Shown: positions 637-2,160 of the stretch, in pieces | Position numbering within the stretch: position 1 is the first letter of the stretch | How the letters are laid out: each line of letters begins with the position of its first letter | Source: Escherichia coli | GTDB lineage: Bacteria; Pseudomonadota; Gammaproteobacteria; Enterobacterales; Enterobacteriaceae | Length of the DNA: 2,313 bases | Reading direction: 5' to 3' (one strand) | Assembly: GCF_024223415.1 (NCBI RefSeq) | Contig: NZ_CP100508.1 | Made by a program: the position numbers and the translations under genes | Notes under the pieces: model-generated | Told to the model about the DNA's origin: nothing | Seen by the model: the letters and a program-made list of their open reading frames with translations, nothing else | Database searches by the model: none

Positions 637-1134
637 ATGAACATTACTGAAAGAACGGATAGCAAGAAAAAAGTTTTAAGACAAAATATTACTGAGGTTA
701 TAGATAGAGAAACTGGAAACGTAACACAAGAAATAACCGATATAACAGTTCAATTTCCACAAGAACCTGCGTATGTGAAAATTTATATTGATAATTTATG
801 TGCTGTCACAAAAGCACCTGATTCTCTAAAAGATGTTTTATTTTTAATTCTTAGGAAATTGGATTATGACGGATATATTGCATTATCAACTAGATACCGT
901 AAGGAGATCTGTAAATTATTGGGAATAAAAGACGGAACATTACGTAACAGATTGTATTCATTATCAAAAATGGGGATTATTGCTAGTTGTGGCGGTAATG
1001 AATATCAGGCAAACCCTAATTTATTTGCTCGTGGTGAATGGAAAAAAATAATTGAACAGCGTCGCGAGTTTGAAATGAGAATTAAATATTCACCTAACGG
1101 TGAAACTATTATAACAACCGAAGAAATAAAATAA
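637..1134 (+). CDS. Putative plasmid replication initiator, small single winged-helix protein, RepL-like (165 aa)
   Basis: Intact ATG(637)..TAA(1132-1134) ORF from the six-frame track. AAAGG Shine-Dalgarno at 625-629, 7 nt before the ATG. Central segment DVLFLILRKLDYDGYIALSTRYRKEICKLLGIKDGTLRNRLYSLSKMGII reads as a winged helix-turn-helix. Overall size and layout (YVKIYI hydrophobic block, HTH, C-terminal NPNLFARGEWKK) resemble the RepL family (Pfam PF05732) as I recall it; this is from memory, not a search. Lies directly downstream of 22-bp tandem iterons. AT-rich codon usage matches the surrounding module. Confidence 0.7.
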   Translation: MNITERTDSKKKVLRQNITEVIDRETGNVTQEITDITVQFPQEPAYVKIYIDNLCAVTKAPDSLKDVLFLILRKLDYDGYIALSTRYRKEICKLLGIKDGTLRNRLYSLSKMGIIASCGGNEYQANPNLFARGEWKKIIEQRREFEMRIKYSPNGETIITTEEIK

Positions 1135-1143
1135 TGCGCACCT

Positions 1144-1173
1144 AAATAAGGTCTTTTTAAAAAGACCTTATTT
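1144..1173. terminator. Candidate bidirectional intrinsic terminator between convergent rep and RHH genes (perfect 30-bp palindrome)
   Basis: AAATAAGGTCTTTTT (1144-1158) is the exact reverse complement of AAAAAGACCTTATTT (1159-1173). It starts 10 bp after the rep stop codon and overlaps the RHH gene stop codon (1168-1170). The hairpin is AU-rich with a weak U-tract, so termination efficiency is uncertain. Confidence 0.5.
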
Positions 1174-1593
1174 GAATAAATCCGAACCTGGATATTTATT
1201 TTTATGTAGCCTTTTTATTATTTTTATTTCATCCTTTATTAAATCCATTTCATTATATATATCAGAAATTCGCTTCGTTACTATTTTCATTTCATCGCAA
1301 AGTAAAATTATTTTATGCATCACCTCGAGGTACTCTTTATCCTTCGGCCGCTTTCCCTTATCAAATAATTTTTTCTGCATCCGACCAAGTCGGATTAATT
1401 CATATAAATACCTGGAAGGTACGCGCTGTTTTATTTCATTATTTAAACTTGCCGTCCTGATATATTCTGAAATTGTCAGTCCTTCGTTCTTCGCTCGCCG
1501 TCTGATTTCGCTTGCAAGTCTGTTATTTACTCTAAGGGTGATAACCTTAGTTCTCTGCCGTACTTCTGAACCACTACGTTTATTTTTAGCCAT
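1168..1593 (-). CDS. Ribbon-helix-helix domain protein, MobC/MbeC-like relaxosome accessory protein or CopG-like plasmid regulator (141 aa from ATG at 1593; the track ORF 1168..1692 uses an upstream GTG)
   Basis: Minus-strand ORF ending in TAA (complement of 1168-1170). N-terminal KVITLRVNNRLASEIRRRAKNEGLTISEYIRTASLN matches the RHH pattern (beta-strand, helix, G, helix with S.SEYIR) typical of MobC/MbeC/CopG proteins. C-terminal half is K/E-rich and helical. Start at ATG 1593 preferred: GGAGAG Shine-Dalgarno lies 8 nt upstream on the minus strand (complement of 1602-1607), whereas the 33-codon extension to GTG 1692 is GC-richer than the gene body and has no properly spaced RBS. Confidence 0.65.
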   Translation of the reverse strand: MAKNKRSGSEVRQRTKVITLRVNNRLASEIRRRAKNEGLTISEYIRTASLNNEIKQRVPSRYLYELIRLGRMQKKLFDKGKRPKDKEYLEVMHKIILLCDEMKIVTKRISDIYNEMDLIKDEIKIIKRLHKNKYPGSDLFK

Positions 1594-1662
1594 CGCAATG
1601 ACTCTCCATTTTGCACGTTTGGGGTGTCGGGGCTTGCCCTGACAGGAGGTATTCTCATGCAA

Positions 1663-1690
1663 GCGAATGTATTCGCGGTATGACGAATAC
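1663..1690 (-). promoter_or_regulatory. Inverted-repeat cluster upstream of the RHH gene (candidate operator)
   Basis: GCGAAT (1663-1668) / ATTCGC (1671-1676) form a 6-bp inverted repeat with a 2-nt spacer. GTATTCG (1669-1675) / CGAATAC (1684-1690) form an overlapping 7-bp inverted repeat with an 8-nt spacer. Located 70-100 bp upstream of ATG 1593 on the minus strand. RHH proteins commonly autoregulate through such repeats, but no clean -35/-10 pair was found. Confidence 0.3.
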
Positions 1691-2160
1691 ACATCCTATC
1701 CCATTTTCCGCTGCAACTTTTCAACGAAAATAAAATACCGCGTCGTAACCTAGTATTTCTGATACAAAAAAATGATGCTTCATTCAATATTATTTATACA
1801 GATTTTAAAAATTATTGATTGTTATTTAATAAATAACACCGAATTAATTGATGTCTTTGTTGTCTGTCGTTTGTAGATTATTAGAGGAATAAAGATTAGA
1901 TCTTCTTGGTTATATAATCCATTGCCTGTTGGTAATGCGGGATTCGTCCAGAGAGCAGGAGGCAAAAGAGCAAGATGGTAGCATATGCATAAAATATAAC
2001 TATGTGAGTTATTGATATCGCGTTTATATATTAAAAATATAACTTAACGTCGCTCCTAATCTTTATTTCATCCTGGCAATGGGAGCATTAATCCCCGTGC
2101 AGTGCTCCGCCAGCTGCTGACAACCTCGACATATAACCATCGATACGATAGAACATCAGG

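Follow-up and report, generated by a model that had tools for sequence, protein, structure and literature searches.

Conserved elements in the presumed leading flank of an R64-like transfer origin on a small cryptic Escherichia coli plasmid

The window, by which we mean the whole 2313-nt stretch of DNA analysed, is a complete circular cryptic plasmid of E. coli of the Col(MG828)/RepL type. It is 99.7% identical, end to end, to 2313-bp plasmids of E. coli and E. fergusonii, which PLSDB/MOB-suite typing assigns to replicon Col(MG828) and calls non-mobilizable. Its gene content is limited to repL and a nikA-like gene (Table 1). The product of the latter, which the first-pass annotation of this DNA had described only as an RHH protein, matches the NikA-like Pfam family PF21983 (E=2.2e-15) and aligns by tblastn with IncI1 NikA at 50% identity (aa 7-104); by these similarities the gene belongs to the NikA family of relaxosome accessory genes, and in relatives it is annotated as mobA or nikA. 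Plasmids of 2.2-3.1 kb from this family were present in 45 of 5,426 complete E. coli genomes (~1%). The module 1162-2313 plus 1-384 is common to ~40 plasmids, among which the repL/iteron segment is swapped, and a divergent subgroup of 2.18-kb (2182-bp) plasmids encodes a NikA that is 73% identical. Our literature search found no experimental work on the family. Near-identical copies also occur as small contigs in assemblies of Pseudomonas sp. A-RE-19 and Parendozoicomonas haliclonae, where contamination rather than host range is the most likely explanation. Between the convergent repL and nikA-like genes, at 1144-1173, lies a perfect 30-bp palindrome (AAATAAGGTCTTTTT/AAAAAGACCTTATTT) that is probably a bidirectional terminator.

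Table 1. Features of the 2313-bp plasmid, in window coordinates. Nucleotide diversity (pi) was computed among 14 family members; a slash in a sequence marks the presumed nick.
Feature	Coordinates	Strand	pi	Remarks
repL-like gene	637-1134	+		Pfam RepL, weak match
nikA-like ribbon-helix-helix relaxosome accessory gene (assigned by homology)	1168-1596	-	0.131 (third codon positions)	ATG at 1596, 142 aa; third positions serve as synonymous-site proxy
oriT core, interval used for diversity	1597-1698		0.015	
Trailing (nikA-side) core of predicted IncI1/R64-type oriT	1621-1698	+		Homology to nikA-upstream DNA
Nick region, ACATCCTA/TCCC	1691-1702	+		From alignments; crossovers fall inside; nic placed by analogy between 1698 and 1699
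Block A	1699-1835		0.045	Conserved non-coding DNA directly 3' of the nick
Site A', candidate NikA-type site	1752-1766	+		Second GGTAT-N5-ATACA copy, 75 bp from the nick-proximal copy
Family-restricted ORF	1772-1876	+		68-69 codons in the family, 34-codon remnant in the window; not a credible gene
Middle, fast-evolving spacer	1836-1965		0.188	At or above the synonymous-site proxy
Palindrome GCATATGC and first AAAATATAACT copy	1981-2001	+		Present; not conserved in most relatives
Block B core	2005-2053		0.026 (2005-2048)	Nearly invariant in the family

Upstream of the nikA-like gene, which runs from 1596 to 1168 on the minus strand, lies the interval 1694-2070. The first-pass annotation had correctly placed it there, describing it as AT-rich non-coding DNA with one palindrome and one direct repeat, and the sequences and positions that it gave are right (GCATATGC at 1981-1988, AAAATATAACT at 1991-2001 and again at 2034-2044). 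The interval is indeed AT-rich (30.8% G+C), but it does not stand out from its neighbours: both repL (31%) and the nikA-like gene (34%) have the same composition, and AT-richness is therefore not itself a signal. The first-pass annotation rightly called the repeats weakly significant: among 2000 dinucleotide-preserving shuffles, 5.4% had an exact direct repeat of at least 11 bp. The 11-bp repeat does exist, though its significance is marginal, and conservation extends to its second copy, not to its first. Likewise, the palindrome is present but not significant: the region has five 8-bp palindromes where 3.0 are expected (P=0.18). Most relatives have GCATGTAC in place of the palindrome and AAAATATAAAT in place of the first repeat copy. 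Neither the flagged repeat nor the flagged palindrome is among the functional features of this DNA, a mostly clarifying outcome.

The absence of a credible gene in the interval was borne out. The only sizeable ORF (68-69 codons in the family, starting at 1772) is uninterrupted in 6 of 12 relatives, the others having lost it in various ways; in the window, a substitution at 1875 cuts it to 34 codons. Its variable sites fall 30/29/26 on the three codon positions, with no third-position bias. A homology search, which could have revealed a conserved coding gene, returned 18 homologues, all of them on the same 2-4 kb E. coli plasmid family, and the ORF has no Pfam domain. Two further candidates, a minus-strand ORF of 42 codons that spans the nick and carries a frameshift in the divergent subgroup (L037), and a 27-codon plus-strand ORF, were rejected, no ORF being conserved.

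The DNA on the nikA side of the interval resembles a known transfer origin. Positions 1621-1707 match at ~75% the unannotated DNA of hundreds of 80-130 kb IncI/IncK-type conjugative plasmids and of small ColE1-type plasmids; in the large IncI/IncK plasmids the matching DNA is intergenic and directly upstream of nikA-nikB. The core carries GGGGTGTCGGGGC..GCCCTGAC and an inverted repeat (GTATTCG at 1669-1675, CGAATAC at 1684-1690), from which 8 nt (1691-1698) lead to the nick. A repeat-A-like motif, GGTATGACGAATACA at 1677-1691, ends 7 nt before the nick. In R64, repeat A is the NikA site and has an 8-bp spacing to nic, which is also seen in the pEK204 sequence; the motif in the window is positionally equivalent to it, and NikA binding is predicted there. 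GGTAT stands 22 nt before the nick in the window and at the same distance from nic in pEK204. The conserved MOBP nick-region sequence (C)ACATCCTG/T is present too, 1690-1702 reading CACATCCTATCCC. The core has the lowest diversity of the module and a conserved consensus hairpin (z=-4.4). By homology and position, then, 1621-1702 is an R64/IncI1-type oriT directly upstream of the nikA-like gene. An oriT was among the functions that had been suggested for 1694-2070, and one does exist, with its core at 1621-1698 and its nick region straddling the first bases of the interval, but it does not include the flagged repeat and palindrome (1981-2044).

Strand and direction follow from the biochemistry of RP4 and R64: by this analogy the plus strand would be nicked between 1698 and 1699, the relaxase would stay on the 5' end at T1699, and transfer would proceed 5'->3' with 1699 onward as leading DNA. 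Such a nick and such a direction would make 1694-2070 the leading-side flank of the oriT, and probably the first DNA to enter the recipient. No cognate NikB relaxase is encoded in cis; since repL and the nikA-like gene are the only genes of the plasmid, the relaxase must come from a helper. On the leading side, similarity to R64/IncK DNA stops ~10 nt after the nick, and blastn matched the interval only within the window's plasmid family.

Natural recombinants are consistent with use of this site. Two IncK2/Z conjugative plasmids, p5312.29 (NZ_KR905385.1, 3405-5930) and pTMSA992 (NZ_KR905387.1, 1420-3900), each hold a whole small plasmid of the family at their own oriT, and both junctions of each cointegrate lie inside CACATCCTG/TCC. 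The two inserts differ in their NikA and RepL proteins and thus represent independent events. In addition, the mosaic 2328-bp plasmid pB771_2328 (NZ_CP120561.1) matches the divergent 2182-bp subgroup at ~100% identity on the nikA side, and its leading side is 92-100% identical to that of the window's group; the switch between parents falls between 1686 and 1702 (window-equivalent), a 17-bp interval containing the nick. The crossovers of the two cointegrates and of the mosaic are hence all inside a 12-17-bp nick region, as would be expected from relaxase-catalysed oriT-specific recombination, homologous exchange within so short an identical tract being a less likely alternative. The cointegrates are indirect natural evidence of an IncK2 relaxase having acted on a window-type oriT. 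As they formed at nic, relaxase-mediated recombination could fuse these plasmids with large plasmids, or shuffle them.

We then looked at how the flank varies among relatives. Block A and the block B core are 3-5 times less diverse than the third codon positions of nikA (Table 1). Homology to the divergent subgroup covers nikA, the oriT, and block A up to ~1827 at 78%, and is then lost: the middle is not alignable there, and between block A and the GC backbone only 2016-2053 (82%, L037) can be aligned. Low diversity together with survival in the divergent subgroup suggests that block A and the block B core are under constraint and that the DNA between them is not; part of the low diversity may, in turn, reflect recombination rather than selection. 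In the block B core, which includes the second repeat copy, TATCGCGTTTATATAT-N3-AAATATAA-N-TT is kept in the divergent subgroup. Searches of genome contigs and metagenome contigs did not find this core outside the window's plasmid family: the two genome-contig matches to the invariant block are the same plasmid, in the Pseudomonas and Parendozoicomonas assemblies mentioned above, and the ten metagenome-contig matches all come from the same plasmid family or from assemblies joining related copies. A resemblance of the core to 385-402 and 440-451 is within chance for A/T-only strings, by our own arithmetic. At the right end of block A there is a 17-bp palindrome, GTTATTTA-A-TAAATAAC (1821-1837), which is largely invariant in the main family and lost in the divergent subgroup.

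Within block A, relatives carry GGTATTTCTGATACA at 1752-1766, across the nick from GGTATGACGAATACA. We refer to this second copy of the GGTAT-N5-ATACA motif as A'. The window's own A' reads AGTATTTCTGATACA because of a substitution at 1752 that is absent from its closest relatives. The motif, which was defined post hoc from these same sequences, is exact at +75/76 bp in 27 of the 32 family oriT copies, and 0 of 200 shuffles contained even one exact match. In the divergent subgroup all ten arm bases of A' are kept, and four of the five spacer bases differ. No second GGTAT-N5-ATACA copy was found on the leading side of IncI1 or pOSAK1. From this duplication we infer that the NikA-like protein may bind both 1677-1691 and the candidate site A'.

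We consider it reasonably likely that the interval forms the leading-side flank of an IncI1 (R64)-type mobilisation module whose relaxase acts in trans. In such a module, the plasmid's own NikA-like RHH protein would bind the repeat-A-like sequence just left of the nick, and a NikB-type relaxase from a co-resident IncI, IncK or IncB/O plasmid would cut the plus strand between 1698 and 1699 and pilot it 5'->3' into the recipient, with 1699-2070 first and nikA last. Block A would be a constrained cis-acting part of the module, and A' a second NikA-type site, its 75 bp from the first corresponding to ~seven helical turns. Block A also holds the most easily melted DNA of the plasmid, which would be compatible with a DNA unwinding element, another of the functions originally suggested. 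NikA on both sides of nic might bend or bridge the DNA and help to open the nick region, and/or repress nikA transcription. The middle would be a neutral spacer with a decaying ORF, and the ~40-bp block B core a second conserved duplex-DNA site for some putative partner. The MOB-suite call of these plasmids as non-mobilizable speaks against this model.

A more ambitious version of this proposal is an extended, two-sided oriT, in which mobilisation or establishment would require, in cis, both A' and the block B core, the latter lying 300 bp into the leading region. We put it forward tentatively, and as the less probable outcome. The functional oriT of R64 lies on the nikA side of nic, so that a leading-side requirement would be without precedent in R64 itself. 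If true, it would represent a new architectural variant of MOBP-type origins without counterpart in R64, on plasmids which current typing tools call non-mobilizable.

Some of the same observations could be explained if the interval were mainly the promoter/operator of the nikA-like gene, with transcription starting in block A and running leftward through the nick, and with A' as an autoregulatory operator. This reading overlaps with the mobilisation module rather than excluding it, and we regard it as possible though rather unlikely. It would account for the constraint on block A, RHH proteins are commonly autorepressors, and the 102 bp from the nikA-like ATG to the nick are already filled by oriT repeats. 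There is also a weak minus-strand candidate, TTGAAT-17-TATCAG (1787-1759), whose -10 would lie inside A'. Nevertheless, a consensus scan of both strands of 1694-2070 found no promoter-like site, our own position-weight scan gave only weak scores, and none of the minus-strand candidates in block A is shared by both subfamilies. A conserved sigma-70 promoter was thus not found on either strand of the interval, though a weak or atypical one may be present; a promoter needs ~60 bp, not 370.

Alternatively, the interval could be a functionless leftover, a decayed 68-codon ORF plus spacer carried along with nikA-oriT from an AT-rich ancestral plasmid. The state of the ORF, intact in half of the relatives and free of codon-phase bias, speaks for this, as do the middle 130 bp, which evolve at or above the synonymous-site proxy, a composition equal to that of the neighbouring genes, and the lack of excess structure and of any scanned motif (iteron, IHF, XerD, DnaA) above chance. 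As an example, the XerD-arm consensus TTATGTTAAAT of a cer-like site had two 2-mismatch matches against 2.4 expected. What a leftover does not explain is that block A and the block B core are far less diverse than the synonymous-site proxy and the sole survivors of the flank in the divergent subgroup, nor that the arms of A' are fixed while its spacer changes, and we therefore hold this explanation to be improbable.

Even less support was obtained for a small protein, a small RNA, or an ssi/Frpo-like single-strand initiation/promoter signal acting on the incoming T-strand, a reading that we judge very unlikely. The leading region is where single-strand signals sit on large conjugative plasmids, and in most relatives (not in the window) the variable spacer contains AGGAAGCGGAAGAG, an exact 14-bp copy of the core of a ColE1-like segment (340-353). 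On the other hand, the interval folds no better than shuffles as a single strand (z=-1.1 and -0.8), consensus folding of 1699-1965 gave z>-1.2 on both strands, and in relatives, uncompensated changes break a 12-bp inverted repeat (1888-1899/2056-2067). No ORF is conserved, and an Rfam scan in E-value mode returned only noise, with no family matched. A second long-range inverted repeat (1825-1836/2024-2035) is broken in the same manner, and for a hairpin at 2073-2113 our reading of the alignment is that the substitutions in relatives are not compensatory. In L007, the two AGGAAGCGGAAGAG copies lie at 380-393 and 1996-2009 (window-equivalent 340-353 and 1956-1969); the window's lineage reads AGGAGGCAAAAGAG at 1956-1969. 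The GC-rich segment around 340-353, at 282-381, includes GAGGAAGCGGAAGAG; more than 1000 ColE1-type plasmids match it at 75-82%, and in three of these plasmids the match lies ~60-150 bp past the origin position expected from RNAI, at what we take to be the ColE1 primosome assembly site; no RNAI was found in the window.

A second origin, also among the functions originally suggested, or an unwinding element serving vegetative replication is extremely unlikely: the interval does hold the least stable duplex DNA of the plasmid (40-bp window 1788-1827, 100-bp window 1750-1849) and relatives carry a DnaA-box-like (A/T)TTTACACA at 1792-1800 (a perfect relaxed-consensus match in L037, by our reading of the alignment), but there are no iteron copies in the plasmid outside 489-545, DnaA boxes (8 against 5.4 expected) and IHF consensus matches (4 against 4.6, the two inside the region not being conserved in the divergent subgroup) are at chance level, and the usual arrangement of a DnaA box, an AT-rich tract and iterons is found at 429-562. 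Moreover, the interval is missing altogether from 1.5-kb Col(MG828) plasmids, which have the GC-rich backbone (2234-2313 plus 1-381) in common with the window and possess a RepL-like gene; it is thus not needed for replication, and it is always found with nikA-oriT, whatever the repL/iteron variant. By its layout, the segment 429-601 resembles a vegetative origin with the control region of repL: it has the DnaA-box-like TGTGGATAC (429-437), an A/T-rich tract, three 22-bp iterons (492-562) and, at 573-601 upstream of repL, the plasmid's best promoter-like site (GTGACA-17-TATATT).

Returning to the mobilisation module, we compared it to known systems. In RP4 (IncP), TraJ acts on the trailing side, and leading-side DNA bound and bent by TraK aids relaxosome formation. 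The window would resemble it, by analogy only, in having an AT-rich region on the leading side predicted to be bound by an accessory protein; unlike in RP4, no TraK homologue or sequence similarity was found, and A' resembles the site of the plasmid's own NikA. The likeness to the oriT-nikA-nikB region of R64 is much closer: GGGGTGTCGGGGC..GCCCTGAC, the inverted repeat, GGTAT and CACATCCTG/TCCC come in the same order and spacing, and the trailing side has a nikA-family gene whose start is ~100 bp from the nick. In contrast to R64, whose MOBP relaxase is NikB, the window has no nikB in cis. Its NikA is longer (142 aa against 110 in the R64 type, at 50% identity), its inverted-repeat arms are shorter (7 bp against 17), and the second GGTAT-N5-ATACA site and the block B core occur only in its own family.

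Among small plasmids, the window is comparable to the NTP16/pCERC7/pU302S/pOSAK1 group, in which nikA and an R64-like oriT are also found without a relaxase. It differs from this group in its NikA lineage (42-43% identity to the pOSAK1/pU302S type) and in its replicon, RepL/iteron instead of ColE1-type with RNAI, and in the group neither an AT-rich flank nor a second site follows the nick. The window is accordingly not a member of the NTP16/pCERC7 group proper, for which an identical NikA and a ColE1-type backbone have been reported. PMC9282650, citing Moran & Hall 2017, treats NikA-only small plasmids as a recognised class, and states that NTP16 was mobilised by R64 and that the group is expected to be mobilisable by I-complex plasmids. 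Mobilisation by R64 of small plasmids with R64-like oriTs has been shown experimentally, e.g. for pEC156 (PMC4743918). The latter, an oriT-only plasmid of ColE1 type, is like the window in having an R64-like oriT, used in trans by R64, and unlike it in its additional F-type oriT, the lack of a reported nikA, and an unrelated replicon.

The combination of an R64-type oriT and NikA predicts that plasmids of the window's family can be mobilised by IncI/IncK/IncB/O resistance plasmids. The type of transfer origin is already known; what is new here are two small novelties, the block B core and a second repeat-A-like site that is specific to this family. As a whole, the interval is a rather ordinary feature that contains two conserved sub-elements of putative function, block A with A' and the block B core, and these elements offer cheap targets for asking what a relaxase-in-trans oriT needs beyond the nick region and repeat A.

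The window's own copy deserves a separate comment. Compared to its closest relative it has seven private substitutions, at 103, 593, 1011, 1698, 1752, 1797 and 1875, four of which (G1698A, G1752A, C1797T and the change at 1875 that shortens the ORF) are clustered within 1698-1875. Four out of seven in 8% of the plasmid corresponds to P ~0.001 by our own binomial arithmetic. G1698A is at nick position -1: an A here is unique to the window, 31 of 32 family copies having G, as do IncI1, IncK and pOSAK1. G1752A affects an arm of A'. Given its uniqueness among 32 copies, G1698A may render the window's copy transfer-defective, and with G1752A added the molecule may be impaired for transfer.

Two further observations concern the backbone and its smaller relatives. 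At 2161-2224, two perfectly complementary GC-rich arms of 13 bp flank a loop of 38 nt; this hairpin is strongly conserved where present (consensus-fold z=-10) and is deleted in one relative (L011). In two longer metagenome contigs (L027 and L035) the plasmid is joined to unrelated GC-rich DNA near this hairpin, and these contigs are probably assembly chimeras. Among the 1.5-kb plasmids, in which the RepL-like gene is an HTH gene, CP125080.1 (1549 bp) carries at 1067-1150 and 1263-1320 an R64-type oriT of its own without nikA, plus a ColE1 bom/nic-like sequence.
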